DNA of 64,000 bases from Botryllus schlosseri (taxonomy: Eukaryota), in contig CM119371.1 of assembly GCA_051294905.1 (NCBI GenBank), forward strand, positions 11,782,001 to 11,846,000, given 5' to 3'. Both the position numbers and the translations under genes were made by a program. This document shows positions 7,953 to 30,680 of this stretch, in pieces (within the stretch, counting starts at the first letter, position 1; each line of letters begins with the position of its first letter). The notes under the pieces are model-generated. The model was given only the letters and a program-made list of their open reading frames with translations, made no database searches and was not told the origin of the DNA.

Positions 7953-9190
7953 GCCACTCAAATCTTAATCGAATTTTATTCTAATGTTTCAATACGAGAA
8001 GCGAGGGAAATACAATTAAATAGGAATTCTGCAGAAACGTCGGATTCTAGATTGATTGCAGTGCAAAGCTATTTGATAATATTGGTGGTTGAGTTTTAAA
8101 CGGCCAGTAACGCCATTTCCCCGGTGTGGGAGAAATAAGGAAAAAGTAGAACATACGAAACTTATACTTGGATATCAAACATGGCCTCGTCGAGAACAAA
8201 TAGCCAACATTTCTGTGCATTTTCCTCGCGGAACAACTCAAAAAGCAATAGATAGAGAATCCGATAAACTTCGAATATCCAAGAATGGAATCCCGGAACA
8301 AAATATTAAAGCCAAAATTTTTACCTGCTGTATCAGGGGCGGGCAACATACGGCCCGCGGGCCCGATCCGGCCCGCGACGGGATTCTGTGCGGCCCGCCG
8401 ACAGTTTTCGGTCTTACATGATGATGAGGCCCGCGTCGCCGTCTACAGGCATTTAGGCGCAAACAATTTCGAGCATGAACATTAGCAAGACAAAGCGACG
8501 TTCTAATACAACTGATGCTCACCGCATTGACGTAGCCAGGGGCGAATGGGACCATACCATACCCAAATTTGTATATTCGTACTATTTATAAATAGTGGAA
8601 TATTTTCGGGCAGATGGATTCAAACTGAAAAATTTTAGCGCGCTTCGCGCGATTTAGTGTCTCTACGTTCATGTCTTGGTTAGGAGATTACAGTGTCATA
8701 GATACACTAGAATAGCCCAGGGCCGTGAGGCTGCAGGCGTTTTCAACAAGGTAATTGTTAACAATGAACCCGCCCGAAGTGAATAATCTGCGATAAGCTC
8801 ATTAATGTATATATTCTTATTCCATGATCAATGTTAAAATTTGTAATTATACCTGCTGTAAATTTTCGAAGAAACCACTTGCTCATACCCTCACCAATAT
8901 CATTGATCAAATTCATTCAATTAGGTAAAAAAAAATTTCGCGCTCACTGAAAAAAAAATTTACCTCGATTTACCGCGAAATGTCTGGAAGCAGGGTGGCC
9001 AGCCACTTGGCAGTAATATAACATTACCGTCACTCAATGTAAATTCAACTTACAACCGTCCGGTAATCTAACTTTACATGCCAGACTGTAATGTTACAGT
9101 CACCTCTGGTATATTCAATCTACATTTTCTTCTGTGTACTTTTACCACCGAGACTGTAATTTTACCGCCTTACCTACCTACCTACAACCC

Positions 9191-9575
9191 GGGTCCGTCT
9201 ACTTTGTGCATGTCGGCTATGTCGACTATGTCGGCTATGTAGCGGCTATGTCGGCTATGTCGACTATGTCGGCTATGTCGAATATGTCAACTATGTCGCA
9301 GCTATGTAGCGGCTATGTCGGGAATGTCGCAGCTATGTAGCGGCTATGTCGACTATGTTGGCTATGTCGCAGCTATTTTGCGGCTTTGTGCGTGTCGGCT
9401 ATGTCGCAGCTATGTCGACTATGTAACAGGTATGTCGGAGCGATTTGGACTTTGTTGCAGCTATAGGTCGACTATGTGAAAGATGTCGCAGATATATATG
9501 TCGATAATGCCGGCTATGTCACAGCTATGTCGCGGCTATGTCGGCTATGTAGCAGCTATGTCGGCTATGTCGTCT
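9191..9575 (+). repeat. Left TIR of the MULE, array of 9/12-bp GCTATGTCG-type units
   Basis: Repeated ggctatgtc / gactatgtc / gcagctatgt units, colinear in reverse complement with 14665-14931. Confidence 0.92.
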
Positions 9576-9834
9576 ACGTAATCAACTCCGGAGATGCAGG
9601 AGAGGATTTTGCAATAATTTTAATTTTAACATTGTCTTATATATGTTTCAGGCAAAGTATTGTGCCGAAGTCGGATCCAGAAGCAGATGCTATAGTTGTC
9701 TTTATACGTTGCAACTTGCAATGTCGTAATATTTGTAATGCAAATACAATAGACGAAAAAAAGATTGAGTTTCCGTGTTGTCTCTTTCCTGGTGGTCAAC
9801 GTAACAGCTTTAAAATTTATGGAAGGCCCTACAG

Positions 9835-10391
9835 CAAGGGTCGGCAACCTACGGCCCGCGGGCCGGATCCGGCCCGCCAAGCGACATTGAACTGAGAAAT
9901 TAATAGCAACTTTTCCTCGAAAATACAAGTATCGCCGACTCATAATCTTGTAATCTAAAATGGGTATCTAATCTTGCTCTCCTGGTACATTTAACGTCAT
10001 ATCTGACAAATTGAATTTGCATTTTCAGGGGGCAACTGAATACACGAGATGTTGAGTCGCATTCGAAACATCATCATCATCATCATTGGTTTATTAGCAA
10101 TTTTATCAGTTCAATACATCACAAAAAATGCGATACAATGAAAAGACAGGAAGATGTCGAAGCGACAAGGAGTAGTCTATGGAATCGGACAATGCGTCAA
10201 TTGTCACATTTATTCTGCGTTGTTGAAGTGTAGATACTTGCGTTTTATCATTGGTATGATTGAGATTGTAGCAATGTAGGATAATGTACCGAAGTGAGCG
10301 TAAAATATAGTATTAAGGAAAATTCCGGCCCGCCAAAAGTTGTACACTCGAAATTTGGCCCGTGACTAGCAAAAGGTTATACCGACCCCTG
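9835..10391. mobile_element. hAT (Charlie-like) MITE inserted in the MULE 5' region
   Basis: caagggtcggcaacct...ccgacccctg termini; TSD ccctacag (9827-9834, 10392-10399); ggcccgc subterminal motifs. Confidence 0.88.
10069..10192 (-). mobile_element. 5'-truncated LINE 3' tail with (ATG)n end, inside the MITE
   Basis: Closely matches the reverse complement of the LINE 3' end at ~33757-33890, including aataaacc(a)+(atg)n. Confidence 0.85.
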
Positions 10392-10970
10392 CCCTACAGG
10401 GTTAAAACTTTGTAATTGAATTCTCAAATCGAGCTCACATAAACGTTTAACCAGCAACAATGGTGCATGGTCATCAATCAATGATGTATGAAGTACATCA
10501 TTGTGTTCAATAATGAACTTGATAATTAATCCCAGTTTCGGGCTAACAATGGTGAAAAATGTCCTTCAATTCGTATTTGCGAAAGGCAGAGTTTGGCCAA
10601 GGAAGTGTTGAGCAATCATTGCAAGAAAAGAAAGTGCTGAGCAGTAGAATATAAATTTTAAAACGAAATGGAAATAGAGCTTGCATTAGTTATGTCTCAA
10701 CCAACCGTATCTTTGATTGGAAGGAAAATGAATAGAGTACGTTAGCAGAATTCCAGTGGTATGGAGCGTTTACCAGCTCCCTCGATAATTTTGATTTTGG
10801 GGACTGTATGTATAAGTCGATAATTATTTTGAAATGATAGAAGATTCCAGGCGGGGTACATCGCGCAATTATCATCGGAATTATTATGCCGTGTCGTGAT
10901 TAATAACCTTTCGCACTACCTTTTGGAGGATTACAGAAATTTAATTGTAAACAACAATCTGAATTCGGGT

Positions 10971-13900
10971 ATGAATGTTCGCGGGATATCTGCGCAATGC
11001 GTCGTTTGCACAAATGTTTGCACGGACGAATGCATTAAATGCGACAATTGCAAATTATGGGTTCATTCTTCCTGCACCAAAATAGTTGACTTGCGCAAAT
11101 GGTCCAAGCTGCTATATGTTTGTTCGAGCTGTATTCTTAAAGATGGACATTTTAATTACGAATTGGCACTCGATTATTTGGCACAATCACCAAGAAATTC
11201 GAAATCCATCAGGCATCTAATGGAGCTGTACGCGGTACCGGAGCCGGCTGTTGCTTCAGTTGACCCTCATAGCACTCCTGTGGACAAGGTTGCTATGAAA
11301 ATACTGCAATTATATCACCCTGCGGCAGGTGAGAGTACCATAGCATTGTCCGTCGCAGGTGACGGCAATTGCTTTTATCGAGCAATATCTTTGACCATGT
11401 ACCGTACCGAGCAATACCATCTGCGGCTTAGGCTACTTACCGCCATGGAAATCATAGAAAACAGGAAGTACTATGACGAGAGTTTCAGAGGCTTCGTCGA
11501 TGTTATTGGGGACTTTCGTGTGGTCTCGTCTAAATACACAAGACTGATTGAGAAAACTTGCAATCCGGGAAGCTATTCCGAACTTCTGCATTTTTATGCG
11601 TTGAGCGCTGCGATCCGCAAGCGAATTCGTTCCTACTTTCCCCCAGCAACGGTCAACCAATATTTGACCGAGCCATTTTCCAGAATATGTTGCGGACGAG
11701 GAGTCAAAATCTCCGGATCTTGCTCCATAACTGTGATGTGGAGTCAGATGACTGTGCCTTCAGACGATATACCGTTTCGACCAAACCATCTCGTCCCGAT
11801 TTTTGATTTGAAGACGGAAGCTAATACAGATTTGACTGAGAGCAGCACGGTAAACCCGTCAAAAATTAATTCAGCGGATCACAGTCAGGCAACACAGGAC
11901 TCAATTGATGTCGAACAAATGTCAAAAAGCTTCGAGCCTGGAGTAAGTAATGTGGAGGTACAACACCAGAAGGTAACAGATTCCATTGATACTGTTCCTT
12001 CAGATGATATACCGTTTAGACCAAACCACATTATTCCGATTTTTGAATTGAAGACAGAAAAGAATATGGAGTTGACTGAAAGCAGCCCGCTTATTCCATC
12101 TAAAAATAATTCAGCGGATCATGGTCAGGATATACCGGATTCAATTGATGCGGAACAAATGTCAAGAAGCTTCGAACCTGGAGTAAATTATTTGGAGGCA
12201 CAGCATCAGAAGGTAGCAGATTCCGTTGGTACTGGGGAGAAGCCTGACATCTTTGATCAGCCGAACAATGATTACGAGGAGGCAGAAACCACAACTAGCG
12301 CAAAAGCAAGCGGATCCTCGGAAGAATTGCCCATAGGCGGTAATCAGCTAGTTTGGGGGGAATTTATGAGGATCGAAGAAGTGTGGTGCCTTTTGCAAAA
12401 CTGCCGTACACCGATGAAAGGTGTTCCGACAGGTAGAAAAAGTAATGTTTACTTTCTAGTTGATAATTCCAATAACATACTTAGAAGGAAAGCCAAGAAA
12501 CCACGCATATTTTGGGATGATTTGGGAGCATGGATCAACACGAAGCAGACATCTTCCCAATACGTCAAGTCGGATAAAACCTATACCTTGGTTTACACCC
12601 CGAAAATAAAAAACGGAATTTTCTGCATAAGAAAAAAGGTGCACGAAACAAATTCGGTAGGTTATCATGATATTTCGCCCCAACCAGATCCCAAAGACAT
12701 CATCAAAATTGGGAGGTATTATGCTAATCTAAAAGGGAATAAGTTAGCAAAAAGAGTGTCATGGATCGAAGACGAAAATGCACTCCCAGTAGCTCTTGTG
12801 GAGTATAAAGGAGAACTACAGGAATGCAATGCTCATGGAAACAGCAGAGGAAAAACGCAAACCTATATTCGAACGAATCCCATCGTTTTGGATGAAATAA
12901 AAGATAAATGCTCTTATATACCGGCAAAAAGACTGTACAGCAATTTGCAAACGGAGACGACAGACATCACGAAAATGCCACGCAACTCCCACCAAATCCG
13001 CCAAACCAAATATAGAGTAAAACATGGACATGAACAATCTGATTCGAAAATTCATCCGAAGGGAGGGTTCGCCGACGAAATGCTACAAGTAATTAACATG
13101 GCACAAACATCTAATTTCGTTCAAAAAATTATTCATTCTCAGAAAAATCCCCCAAACATAATTCTCTACACTGAAGAACAGATCTTAGATTTGAAAAATC
13201 AATGTGTAACAGGACAGGCGGTTCTTGGCTTTGATAAAACATTCAACTTGGGAAACATCTATGTGACTGTTGCAGTATTCAAAAATACAAAACTGATCAG
13301 CGTCGAAACTAACGAAAACCCGATTTTTATTGGTCCATTGCATTTGCATCATAAATCTGACATTGGGACGTACAAATACTTTTTCAACCAGCTGGCATCT
13401 GCTCTTGGATAAGACTTCCCTCGATTAATCGTTGGTACTGATGATGAAATTGCTCTTCATGCAGCTATCGAGAGCACGTTCCCCAAATGCAAACACATAC
13501 ATTGCGTTAAACATTTGAAAGACAATCTAATTGACAAGCTAAAAAATTGCATTGGATCCGACAAAGGTCTGAGAAACAGTTTAGTCAAACACGTGTTCCG
13601 TCTTCTCGACAGTACCACGCAAGAGGAGTTTGAGCAACTTCAAAATGCAATCATTGCACGTTGCAATGAAGAATGCCCGCAGTTGACAAAATACCTTGAG
13701 ACTCGAATGTTCAACTTGTTAAAAAACAAAGTTTGGAAAATTGGCAAAATTTCTTCTGCAAACCAATTTTGGACCAATAACAACAATTAAAGTATAAACA
13801 ATGTATTAAAGCGATTAACTGAATGGAAAATTGAGAAAATTCCCCAACTGATTAATACCCTGCACACAGCAGTTTCTTCGCAATATGCTGATGCTCGACG

Positions 13901-14180
13901 CAGTTTAACAAGAACTGGACCGTATCAAGTGATCAGTTGCTGCGACAAATTTGTTGTCCAGCACTGGGATTGGTCCGGCATGACCAGTGAGCGACAGGAA
14001 CAGATTTACAAGGATTTCATGAAGTTTATTCCTCGAGTAACTTTGCCAAATAATAAAAAGACTTCTATCTCAACCGATTCCAAGTTGATTACAAACACCC
14101 CATCAAAGCAAAGTGGGAGTAAGCTAGGTCAATATCCGCGATCTGCCATCAAACAAAAAACAAGAAGAAAATTCATGTGA
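10971..14180 (+). pseudogene. MULE transposase fusion: PHD finger + vertnin-like OTU protease + DDE core, with two in-frame TAA stops
   Basis: ORFs 10896-13412, 13515-13790 and 13929-14180 share one frame; first ATG at 10971. C4HC3 PHD (~10998-11132), GDGNCFYRA (11358), FRPNH (His 11787), GFDKTFN (D 13233), VGTDDE (D 13440), CVKH (13503-13514), TNNNN*SINNVLK (Glu position is TAA, 13788-13790). Confidence 0.88.
11751..12230 (+). repeat. In-frame 240-bp (80 aa) tandem duplication in the transposase ORF
   Basis: TVPSDDIPFRPNH...HQKVxDS occurs twice, starting at 11751 and 11991. Confidence 0.95.
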
Positions 14181-14664
14181 TTACGGTTTTGCTGTACAAT
14201 CTTTGATGTATTTTATATGTTGATGACATGGCAATGGTTGTCGCATGTCGCCAAATATAATCAGTTTCGTTAGTCCATATGGAATTGTATAATTTCGCAG
14301 TTGGTTGGTATGAATTGTAGCGAGGGGAGGAGATAATGTTTGTATTCGATGTCAAATCCCAAAAGTTTGGGTTATTTAATTCACGTAGAACGAATTGCAC
14401 GTACTTTTAGATCGCTGATTTCCCGTTAAAACACTGCCGTCACGCTTGCCAGGGTTGTCAGAGCAGATATATAGGCATCCCAATCTCAGTTGACTTACTA
14501 TTTGTTACACTTAAGTCAAAACCCAATACCATTAATTTCCCCGTATTGCCAATCGCAATTGTGAATTCGGGATGGTTCGAACCACATGGTATGAGACCGT
14601 ACCCGATTGTTGTTAACAACCTTGATTTGACCCTAAAAATACCACACGCAATTATTATGTGGTG

Positions 14665-14931
14665 CAACATAGCCGACATATATCTGCGACATCTGTCATA
14701 GTCGACCTTTAGCTGCGACAAAGTCCTAATAGCTCCGACATAGCCGAAATAGTCGACATAGCCGACATGCACAAAGCCGCTACATAGCTGCGACATAGCC
14801 AACATAGTCGACATAGCCGCTACATAGCTGCGACATAGCCGACATAGCCGCGACATAGCCGACATAGTCGACATAGCCGACATAGCCGCTACATAGCCGA
14901 CATAGTCGACATGCACAAAGTAGACGGACCC
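14665..14931 (-). repeat. Right TIR of the MULE (CGACATAGC-type array)
   Basis: Reverse complement of the left TIR with a different unit count. Confidence 0.92.
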
Positions 14932-15918
14932 CCTACAACCCTACATGCTGTCCTTGTAAATCAGATTACATGCCAGCTTGTAAATTCACGTCTCAGCCTA
15001 CATCCATACCTATCCCAAAGCAACGCGATGCCAAAATACCGCAAAAGTTTCTTCACGCTCTCAAGACGACATTAGGACAACTGTATATTCATTCATGATT
15101 CACGATAAAAAAGTATTGCTGCTGGAGGTATAATTCTTGTTTAGGAGGCATGCAAATATAGCACGAGTGGTCCCAAGAAAAGGTGAATTAATTCCAACGC
15201 CGGATAAACTTCCAATTGTTTCTTTTTCTCCTCTTCATTCCTTCTGTGTGACTAGTATATTGCAGTTCCACTAAAAATAATTCATGCGTAAGTCGCTATA
15301 CTAAGCCAAGTTGCTAACCTAGACATGACTTATAAAGACTAAGACAAATAGGCTAACAAAAATATAACAAGTTTTGAAGTACCGGTACTGGTACATTGTG
15401 AGTTGACGACTCCTCATTTACCATGATATAGCAGAGATTCATGACTTAAATGATCAATGTATTGAAAGAAAAGGTGCCTCATTTGATGCGGCATGTGAGC
15501 CAAACATATCGAGCAGTGGATGAAAACATATCTAAGCTATGACCCGATAAATGTCAATAACAAGCTAACAGTTTCAACTACTCCGCGGCAGAGTATGTGG
15601 TGTCGCAGGTCATTATACAAGTCGACTAATATCCCAAAATAGAACGGAGAATGGGGCGACTGAAATATTTAAATCATGAAACCAAAGTCATCCGGGTGGT
15701 GTGCACAGTCGTAGATATTCACGGTAACTAATACTATAGCCTACAGTAGGCTACTGTACCTTTTACGATGCGCATCCCATTCATCAGTCCTGAGAATCTT
15801 CAACGAAAGTCTCTACTTTCTTCAATCACAAGTCACAAGCTTCGCACCGTCAGCCTTTGCATGCCCAAAGCTCAATATTAATGACCGACCAGTCGGCAAC
15901 TCGGCTCGACACGCAGAC

Positions 15919-28224: not shown

Positions 28225-29540
28225 AGAGAGAGAGAGAGAGAGTCTTTATTTTCATCGAACCAAAATACATAACAAACGGCAGTGATGGTGGTACAGAAAA
28301 TATGCATGCACAGTATTCGGTATTAGATAGGAATGATCGATAAGACCGTGAAGGTCATCTAGTCTGATCACACCAGCATCAAACAGGTACACTTGACTCT
28401 GAACAGTCTGGCTGTAAAGAAATGTTTAGTTAAGGAAAATAGAAGAAAAAAAATTAAGCAATGGTGGCAAATGATCAATGAAGCAATGTCTGGGCGAGGT
28501 AGGGCAACAGTGTTAGTGTAACGACAAGAGGTGATCAAGTAGGGCTTTTTTGAATCTATAATAAGTCAATTCACGGATATGTGGTGGTAATGCATTCCAG
28601 ATGATAGGTCCCGAGTAGTCGATAGATCTCTTAGTTAGGTTGCTATTGGGTGGGGGTAAGTAGATGTTTCCTTTAGACGAGGATCTCGTGTAATGGGAAT
28701 GGACATGTTTAGCAGGTATGAAAAAGTCATCAAACACAGGAGGCAGACTATTGGAAAAATATTTGTGAACAACTTTTGATACTTCGAAGCGATATAGTTC
28801 ATCAACTCGCAAAATTCGATGCTTACGGTAGTAAGGCGATAAATTGGTACGTAAAGGTACAGATGAGATCAGCCGTATCGCACGGTTTTGCAGGGTTCGA
28901 ATTCTGCACAAAAATGTTGTGCATGCATTTCCCCATACTAGGATTCCATATTGCAGATGAGAGTGGAAAAGAGAGAAGTAGAGGGTTCGTAGCACTGATC
29001 TGGAAACCAAAGATTGGAGACGGGTCATTATTCCCACACACCGAGCTAGTTTTGATATTGTGCATTCAATATGCTGCTTCCAAGACAATTTGGAATCAAT
29101 GGTGACGCCGAGATATTTTGCTGAGTCACATATTGAGATTTGTTTATGATTGATGTTCACAGTGAAATTATGACTGGCATTATTTAAAACGAGCATCTCG
29201 GTCTTATCTGCATTCAAACTTAGTTTGTTTGCTTGGAGCCATCTCGACACTTTTGGGAGTTCCATATTCACAGATGCATGCAAACCATCGACAGTGTTGG
29301 AGGTTATGAAGAGGTGAGTATCATCAGCAAATAGCGTTGTGCGGAATAAAGATGCATTAACAATGTCGTTAATATAAATGAGGAAAAAAGTCGGTCCAAG
29401 GACTGAGCCTTGTGGCACTCGACAAGTTTTATCTCTGGTAGTCGTTCTTAATGACCCCAGTTTAACAAATTGTTTGCGGTTTGCCAGGTAGCTTTCAAGT
29501 AGAGTTGCTGCAATACCCCTGATTCCATAGTGAACAACTG
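28225..29540 (-). mobile_element. 5'-truncated CR1/L2-group LINE: RT C-terminal half, 3' UTR and (CT)n tail
   Basis: ORF to 28513 with YGIRG, VPQGSVLGP, LFADD, KYLGV, LQYGILVWG; minus-strand AATAAA (28245-28250) followed by (CT)9. Confidence 0.93.
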
Positions 29541-30119
29541 TACTTGATAATTTCTTTCGAATAATTTGAAATACGTAAGTCTTGTTTACCATGCTTAATG
29601 TATATACCCCATACAAACTGTGTGTGACCACTACGAAGTCACATTTTCACGTCGGAATACACCATTATGACGTCATTTAGACAATTCAAATCGTTTACGT
29701 CCCTTGCCCCACCACCCGATATTATCACGAGCCGCCACTGACTTGTACTGTCTAAGTGCAGCGGTGAATAATGTCGCTGTTGCATTACGAATGCTGTCAT
29801 TAAACCAAACAACGCTACCAAGCTACGAGCACTGGTAAATGGAATATTTTTTTTGGTAAATCGATTCACTGGATATTGAAGACGAGGTATGCAGGCACGT
29901 CCGGGGCATAACTGGAAGTATCGGAAATCGGCGAGTGAGATGCACCGTGGAGACCAAAGTTTAAACCCGGTTAAAATGAAAGATCGCCATGGTCGCCAAG
30001 ACCCATTCTTATCCAGAGAAATCGGTTGCCAGAAGCAGTTTTTTAGTATCCAGCTCCATAATCCATTCGTAATCGCGTCATCTCGTTCTTGCTTGTAATC
30101 GCCTTGTTTCTGGCAAGCT

Positions 30120-30680
30120 TTCTTGCTTCTCCATGTTTTGACTGTCTTGAAGCTACGATCCGTAGTTGCTCTGAAAAATAAATTGAGCGCGGCAGCACAA
30201 TTTGTATGTGAAAGGTTATTGATAATAAGAAACGTACGTGCTTTATTATCGCAGGTGCTTAAAAGTTGTCTTGCTTTTCCATATGTACATGGTCTTGAAG
30301 CTACGATTAGTAGTTGGTCTGAAAAATAAATTGAGCAAGGCAGCACAATTTTTATGTGAAAGGTTATTGATAATAAGAAACGTACGTGTTGGTAACGCAG
30401 GTTCTTAAAAGTTGTCTTGCTTTTCCATATGCAGCCTACATAGTCTTGAAGCTACGATTAGTAGTTGCTCTGAAAAATATATTGAGCGAGGCAGCACAAT
30501 ATGTATGTGAAAGGTTATTGATAATAAGAAACGTACGTGCTTTGGTATCCAGGTGCTCAAAAGTGTCTTGCTTTTCCATATGTCCATCGTCTTGAAGCTA
30601 CGAATAGTAGTTGGTCTGAAAAATAAATTGAGCTAGTCAGCATGTGTGTGAAAGGTTATTGATAATAACACACTTACGTA
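30120..30680. repeat. Tandem array, ~148-bp unit, about 3.7 copies
   Basis: tcttgaagctacga anchors at ~30145, 30293, 30444, 30590; shared gaaaggttattgataataa core. Confidence 0.93.

Follow-up and report, generated by a model that had tools for sequence, protein, structure and literature searches.

What does a putative deubiquitinase do on a transposase, and is such a transposon related to the vertebrate gene vertnin (VRTN)? Both questions are raised by an element of 5741 bp at positions 9191–14931 of a 64,000-nucleotide stretch of the Botryllus schlosseri genome (assembly GCA_051294905.1, contig CM119371.1, positions 11,782,001–11,846,000 of the forward strand), hereafter called the window. 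An earlier note, made from the sequence alone, described the element as a Mutator transposon whose transposase is fused to a PHD finger and a vertnin-like ovarian tumour (OTU) protease. The answer that we consider moderately probable is that the window holds a dead Mutator copy, that its intact kin encode a protein composed of PHD finger, OTU domain, beta-sheet domain and DDE core, that the OTU would shield the transposase from ubiquitin, and that VRTN and this Mutator branch are cousins.

The element itself is almost certainly a copy of a Mutator-type transposon (Mutator-like element, MULE). Its outermost 25 of 25 nucleotides are inverted-identical between the two ends and its 10-bp flanks are identical, which bears out the terminal inverted repeats (TIRs) and the 10-bp target-site duplication (TSD) reported in the earlier note; a TSD of 8–11 bp is a hallmark of MULEs. 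Exact TIR ends of this family were found 33 times in the genome, and the reversed control gave 0. The parts of the element are:

9181–9190, no strand: left TSD, 10 bp, CCTACAACCC, identical to 14932–14941
9191–9579, plus strand: left TIR, with subterminal tandem repeats of 9/11/20/29 nt, a Foldback-like end
10971–14180, plus strand: transposase gene, broken by TAA at 13410–13412 and 13788–13790
10998–11132, plus strand: PHD finger, C4HC3, recognized by its sequence pattern (Pfam PHD E 0.019, under the cut-off)
11256–11810, plus strand: vertnin-type OTU domain with Asp 11361, Cys 11370 and His 11787 (Pfam OTU E 2.4e-5, over the cut-off)
11751–12230, plus strand: 240-bp in-frame tandem duplication (81%) of the OTU His motif and linker
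12327–12860, plus strand: conserved beta-sheet domain between linker and DDE core, with residues invariant among relatives
13065–13920, plus strand: MULE DDE core with Asp 13233, Asp 13440 and CxxH 13503–13514; the Glu position, 13788, is now a stop
14664–14931, minus strand: right TIR, with subterminal tandem repeats of 9/11/20/29 nt
14932–14941, no strand: right TSD, 10 bp, CCTACAACCC, identical to 9181–9190

The PHD finger, OTU domain and MULE core are collinear in one reading frame, as the earlier note had stated, but this frame is not open; likewise, of the catalytic core that it described, both Asp residues and the CxxH motif stand, but not the Glu. The TAA at 13788 occupies the position of the catalytic Glu codon in six other aligned copies. 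Because the frame holds two TAA stops, the window copy is dead and non-autonomous. A copy 95–98% identical to it (L025) is open at both TAA positions, the start Met of the window copy is common to two further copies (L027 and L023), and both units of the 240-bp duplication are also present in L024. The DDE core scored 27.4 bits against Pfam MULE (E 4.8e-6), at a cut-off of 27.6 that several relatives exceeded. Comparison with Pfam gave no match for the beta-sheet domain, and it detected neither FLYWCH nor SWIM domains in the window protein or its relatives.

In the 496 Mb of genome that were searched, the window element gave 52 matches at the DNA level (40 of 55 candidates scored) and the OTU domain gave 47 from 52 candidates. 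The outcome of the search for intact copies, a check proposed in the earlier note, depended on the group: the 20 loci fetched for the window copy's own group all lacked a complete frame, but 20 loci fetched from among the OTU matches included six intact copies of a sister family, each with perfect TIRs and an open frame of 1055 amino acids bearing PHD finger, OTU domain and complete DDE motifs. The TSDs of these six (L071–L076) are 8 bp long in five and 9 bp in one; among all sister copies with both ends found, the proportions are 8/9 and 1/9. The coding parts of the six differ at 1–22 of 2973 nt, and the family has 153 exact TIR ends in the genome (reversed control, 0). On the evidence of its copies, the sister family is intact and recently mobile. 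Raw single-cell RNA reads (3–4% of two runs) covered its coding part at a depth of 0–7, mostly in one orientation, which is weak evidence that it is expressed at a low level. Further families, with frames of 1014, 1048 and 1006 amino acids, have the identical domain order. For two distant families of equal architecture, represented by L085 and L084, identity amounts to 84% over the DDE core but to 59% over the OTU and 42% over the PHD finger, a possible module swap.

The intact sister protein was modelled over its full length (predicted local distance difference test score, pLDDT, 80; predicted template-modelling score 0.47). The model comprises, in order, the PHD finger, a helix pair, the OTU domain, a disordered linker (residues 282–387), the beta-sheet domain, which was modelled with confidence, then helices and finally an RNase-H core that contains a helical insertion. 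This is the fold of IS256/Mutator-type transposases, and the best transposase match was the IS256-family protein ISCth4 (E 6e-7, Z 13.3, root-mean-square deviation 5.5, 243 residues aligned). The OTU model (pLDDT 95) was matched by Foldseek to OTUD1, OTUD3, DUBA and Cezanne (for OTUD3, Z 15.1, root-mean-square deviation 2.0, 132 aligned); all the top matches are proteases of ubiquitin or ISG15. The domain is probably an active protease of ubiquitin or ubiquitin-like proteins. For the beta-sheet domain (residues 387–546 of L071), a borderline match was obtained with S. pombe SSR4 (Z 8.0, root-mean-square deviation 3.1, 109 aligned), a subunit of SWI/SNF-RSC. By analogy with MULE anatomy (PMC1702500), this domain is likely to be DNA-binding and may be WRKY-GCM1-like.

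The OTU profile also found relatives well beyond this genome: at E ≤ 0.001 it matched 2550 protein clusters, of which 805 passed 1e-10 and 213 passed 1e-30. The counts of conservation and domains given here refer to the 150 relatives listed from this search, many of which are fragments. Among those that cover the respective site, the catalytic Asp is kept in 142/145, the Cys in 139/145 and the His in 125/133, in accordance with the intact DxxC (GDGNC) and His (FRPNH) motifs that the earlier note had seen. The middle beta-sheet domain was matched by 43 of the 150 and the DDE core by 16; where at least 450 amino acids follow the OTU, a MULE core is present in 12 of 15. In the aligned full proteins, D, D, C and H are found in 18/18 and E in 17/18, the exception being the window copy with its stop. 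The finger pattern occurs in 11 of the 17 relatives with room upstream. Three of ten relatives looked up belong to Branchiostoma (amphioxus) and one to Lingula (a brachiopod), and an Elysia protein was also recovered in the protein search; the predicted OTU-MULE fusion is widespread among invertebrates. Four Mutator-type OTUs are fused to other modules (P0086, P0132, P0112 and P0109), namely a tyrosine-recombinase-like tail (by eye, with no match in Pfam), a C2H2 array and two long unrelated tails, and these may be further swaps or domestications. Viral contigs gave 22 loci with generic OTU-level matches only (E 4e-7 or weaker), a viral structure library gave the OTUs of baculovirus VP80 and iridoviruses at 8–18% identity and no close viral member, and an atlas search for look-alikes returned OTU clusters only.

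OTU and DDE distances are correlated among 18 proteins (rho 0.60, permutation p 0.0005). The ratio of nonsynonymous to synonymous substitution rates (dN/dS), estimated between families from the four unsaturated pairs out of 28, was 0.20–0.26 for the OTU (95% intervals 0.11–0.39), 0.16–0.24 for the middle domain, 0.10–0.23 for the DDE core and 0.39–0.58 for the linker, which is the least conserved part (11–43% identity between families). Purifying selection on the OTU thus equals that on the middle domain and is near that on the DDE core. Because its Cys is conserved and it is under purifying selection, the OTU is a working part of the protein and not cargo.

The relationship to VRTN was examined with published and newly found sequences. 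By eye, the 12 vertebrate VRTNs in the alignment of PMC3024977 carry the motifs named in the earlier note, and the Cys of the Cys box is absent from all 11 rows that cover it, so that the note's picture of a VRTN without this Cys motif holds for these rows. The VRTN domain has already been called an inactive OTU-like domain, of role unknown, that is followed by five helix-turn-helix (HTH) domains (PMC10318531 and its supplement); the string 'transpos' does not occur in the main text of that paper. An IS3-like HTH was described in VRTN as well (PMC3024977). In the literature covered, from which subscription papers were outside the scope, a transposon origin of VRTN's OTU was not found stated. 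Three word-index protein searches gave 1, 8 and 1 matches and returned neither VRTN nor most of the relatives, which reflects the sensitivity of the method. Among the models of domain databases there is one for the vertnin OTU, and it is applied to proteins of invertebrates as well.

Metagenome contigs scanned for the motif yielded 107 loci. The motif was in frame in 19, and among these, 11 matched the OTU profile strongly. One locus (L217:1–660, minus strand) is a fragment of a fish VRTN, by eye almost the same as the Tetraodon row. It matched the OTU profile at 98.2% (E 4.5e-14), in support of the VRTN likeness that the earlier note had pointed out, and is 33% identical to the window OTU over 86 residues. 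The fragment retains the His of the catalytic motif; this residue is missing from the published rows of fish and mammals. Scores of the C-terminal block against fish VRTN were 16–85 for 28 Mutator-type rows and −19 to 27 for 8 generic rows (one VRTN fragment).

Other vertnin-type OTUs from the contigs sit on other elements, and they are catalytically intact where visible. L187:871–5693 is a piggyBac-type transposase (PF13843, E 2e-62) with an N-terminal, intron-split vertnin-type OTU whose Cys box is intact; a TTAA-CCC end lies upstream, the one end seen. Its OTU is 45% identical to VRTN over 80 residues, which makes it the closest VRTN relative found, and by eye its Cys-box exon is the better fit to the N-terminus of the published VRTNs, with which it also shares a shorter spacing from Asp to Pro. 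L201 is a probable hAT element (zf-C17orf113 and a weak hAT dimerisation match), and L159 is an unclassified long frame, presumably Zator-like. Found independently of the motif scan, P0156 has its OTU at the C-terminal end of another, unclassified type of transposase; it was considered as VRTN's nearest kin and rejected, its C-block score of 61 falling inside the Mutator range. As a query of the Botryllus genome, the P0156 OTU matched only Mutator-type loci. Transposases of the P0156 type, 880 amino acids long, are abundant in that genome (L091–L105) and have no OTU (0/15 loci).

Three trees were calculated with VRTN represented by the single fish fragment of 141 residues, without the Cys box, over 119–127 columns. 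They omit the near copies L192, L216, L223 and L232 and five generic rows, then, for speed, 13 Mutator-type rows, and then two long generic rows. In every case the vertnin-type rows stood on one side and the generic OTUs on the other, with support of 99/98, 100/99 and 98/99. The OTU of this family is thus nearer to VRTN than generic OTUs are, a check suggested in the earlier note, both by the C-block scores and by one clade at 98–100 support; sequence comparison shows a vertnin-type OTU subfamily common to the Mutator family and VRTN. Within this clade, VRTN joined the seven other-element rows with support of 87/85 (all columns, 44 rows), 96/89 (nine search-motif columns dropped, 31 rows) and 98/98 (mixture model, 29 rows); the mixture model left the root among the Mutator-type rows open. 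By the approximately unbiased (AU) test, VRTN with all 15 Mutator-type rows was kept (p 0.31, LG+G4), as was VRTN below all the transposon-borne rows (p 0.18); VRTN with the window's own lineage was rejected (p 0.027), and so was VRTN with the 14 core Mutator-type rows (p 0.006, mixture model). The note's proposal that this family is related to the source of VRTN therefore survives in part: the OTU subfamily is the same, but VRTN groups with the OTUs of other transposons. The Mutator branch appears to be a cousin of VRTN and is disfavoured as its direct source.

From this, a transposon origin of VRTN is plausible, with a transfer that may have run in either direction. Tentatively, at a little short of even chances, we propose that VRTN is a domesticated transposon gene, and that its dead OTU comes from an active deubiquitinase cassette that has been swapped among Mutator, piggyBac, probably hAT and other transposons and kept to counter host ubiquitin.

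How the OTU might serve the transposon can be outlined for the intact Mutator kin. Mutator DDE cores excise the element and insert it elsewhere, and TSDs of 8–10 bp result; the core of this family would act in the same way on its target. The beta-sheet domain would bind the subterminal repeats, the PHD finger would tether the protein to nucleosomes, and the OTU would act in cis as a deubiquitinase, removing host ubiquitin, most likely of the degradative kind, from the transposase or its working complex. We favour protection from degradation as the main role of the OTU, by analogy and with less than even confidence, because the domain can be carried by unrelated transposases, whether or not a PHD finger accompanies it, and because the VTD domains of Helitrons are proven deubiquitinases for which this role has been proposed (PMC9741609).

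Several observations weigh against this picture. The AU results for VRTN are mixed (p 0.31, 0.027, 0.18 and 0.006), and in the VRTN trees the gene is represented by one short fish sequence that lacks the Cys box. A motif shared with VRTN had served to retrieve six of the seven other-element rows, which leaves some bias even after the columns of this motif are dropped, and three of the seven (L205, L234 and L211) show no transposase on their short contigs. Identity of the OTU to solved OTU structures is 14–21%, and transposon OTU domains were described in 2022 as untested (PMC9741609). The finger pattern is missing in 6 of the 17 relatives with upstream room, and selection on the PHD finger is weaker (dN/dS 0.31–0.35, with two of three intervals reaching 1). 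The correlation between OTU and DDE distances is inflated, as six rows come from one genome, and L085 and L084 swap position between the OTU tree and the DDE tree.

The direction of transfer may also have been the reverse, an ancient host OTU gene, the ancestor of VRTN, having been captured by several types of transposon, so that VRTN was never transposon-derived. Transposons commonly capture host protease domains (PMC2836005), and the position of VRTN below all transposon-borne members was kept by the AU test. All three free trees, however, place VRTN with the other-transposon rows and not below them, and VRTN has an IS3-like HTH (PMC3024977). Moreover, those of the 47 genome OTU matches that were examined are Mutator-type or fragments, and a single-copy, VRTN-like host gene was not seen among them, although exon-split genes could escape such a search. 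We regard this course of events as possible but doubtful.

As to function, the PHD finger could read the tail of histone H3 and the OTU strip ubiquitin from histones (e.g., H2A) at donor or target sites, so that the pair would serve in anti-silencing or targeting, as the earlier note had suggested. In the model the two domains are neighbours, linked through a structured pair of helices. A Trp two residues before the His, as is characteristic of readers of the H3 tail, is present in 18 of 20 PHD fingers, and the remaining two have Tyr; where H3K4me3 readers have the second residue of the aromatic cage, however, 13 of the 20 carry Cys. GC and CpG contents of 40 insertion flanks and 40 controls differed in one of 12 tests (p 0.04) and were alike in the other 11, which speaks against targeting but is a weak test with controls that lack CpG depletion. 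In those 40 control stretches (L287–L326), the ratio of observed to expected CpG is about 1.0, that is, CpG depletion is absent in the sample. Anti-silencing proteins are known from the plant VANDAL MULEs (cited in PMC6446971). On balance, a histone-directed role seems unlikely.

It has been suggested for the OTU-bearing MULEs of Medicago that the protease processes its own protein (PMC1702500), and here the OTU might cut a polyprotein within the linker and free the transposase. A disordered linker of 100 residues does follow the OTU directly in the model, but it is the least conserved part of the protein and a block of conserved residues was not seen there. In addition, the top fold matches of the OTU are all proteases of ubiquitin or ISG15, and the domain stands at either end of different transposases (C-terminal in P0156, N-terminal in L187). 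Self-processing is an improbable role for this domain.

A direct descent of vertebrate VRTN from this Mutator family is more improbable still. The strong profile match of the fish VRTN fragment, the presence of the family in amphioxus and the LG+G4 test, in which a sister position of VRTN to the full set of 15 Mutator-type rows was not rejected, would all be consistent with it. Against it stand the grouping of VRTN with other-transposon OTUs in all three trees, the AU rejections of the window's own lineage and of the 14 core rows, the better fit by eye of the piggyBac Cys-box exon to the VRTN N-terminus, and the continuation of VRTN into HTH repeats and not into a MULE core (PMC10318531 supplement). 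The idea that OTU and PHD are mere passengers, fragments captured as in Pack-MULEs and without a role in transposition, is barely credible: the P0156-type transposases without an OTU indicate that the domain is dispensable for some elements, but the in-frame fusion is kept across distant animals, the catalytic residues are conserved, and a dN/dS well below 1 refutes it for the OTU.

Among known systems, the carriage of OTU, Ulp1 and PHD domains has been described for Ginger1, Helitron and Mutator transposases (PMC2836005), and the statement of the earlier note that some MULE lineages have such modules agrees with an OTU on MuDR-6_HM and a PHD on Rehavkus (PMC6446971). MuDR-6_HM of Hydra (group 14 of Dupeyron et al. 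2019, PMC6446971; 5227 bp) is likewise an invertebrate MULE with one open reading frame and an 'Ovarian Tumour Gene' motif; its entry gives neither TIRs nor a zinc finger, whereas the window family has long, repeat-built TIRs and a PHD finger. Compared by description only, it may be of the same lineage as the window family. Rehavkus resembles the family in being MULE-related, with one open reading frame, a PHD finger, a 9-bp TSD and a minisatellite near its end, but in its description an OTU is not listed and its hosts are arthropods and annelids (PMC6446971). The Phantom MULEs are also found in invertebrates, with TSDs of 8–10 bp and TIRs that are long and variable (PMC6446971), but carry FLYWCH or SWIM, neither of which was detected here. 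Transposases of Ginger1, Helitron and Medicago MULEs are fused to an OTU too (PMC2836005, PMC1702500 and PMC9741609); that of Ginger1 and the Medicago MULEs is C-terminal, that of the window family N-terminal, behind the PHD finger. OTU and PHD cargo on MULEs is therefore already catalogued, and the identical PHD-OTU-MULE architecture may stand in the Phantom paper or in Repbase. VRTN, for its part, shares the OTU subfamily and the C-terminal block with the window family but is without Cys box, PHD and DDE, has five HTH domains and is nearer to the OTUs of other transposons. The VTD deubiquitinases of Helitrons are a parallel, being transposon-borne proteases that are active on the element and have inactive host-side derivatives; they belong to another class of protease and of transposon, and their activity is proven, that of the OTU predicted (PMC9741609).

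Other insertions were observed in and around these copies. The left part of the window element contains a nested element that is absent from copy L024:

9835–10391, no strand: nested non-autonomous element, 557 bp, with short imperfect TIRs and an 8-bp TSD (9827–9834 and 10392–10399)

From its end motif we take this element to be hAT-type. It is very abundant, with 2642 first-look candidates in the genome and 76 matches from the 40 that were scored. Apart from the transposase gene, the window has long frames only at 28516–30451 on the minus strand, where a broken LINE-type reverse transcriptase (Pfam RVT_1) lies. Beside other copies of the family lie, by eye, a Gypsy-like pol frame (L037:6706–9999) and a hAT-like transposase frame (L039:7559–9616).

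What appears to be new here is the link between a probably active OTU subfamily shuttled by transposons and the pseudo-enzyme of VRTN, a vertebrate backbone gene whose OTU-like domain has been described as of unknown role (PMC10318531 supplement). Catalytically intact OTUs of DNA transposons are the closest kin found for this pseudo-enzyme, and such presumably active cousins give a handle on what the dead domain of VRTN might still bind. The intact, recently mobile sister family offers a system in which to ask whether deubiquitination helps transposition and, if VRTN is indeed a domesticated transposon gene, would be a ready system for the function of such a protease.

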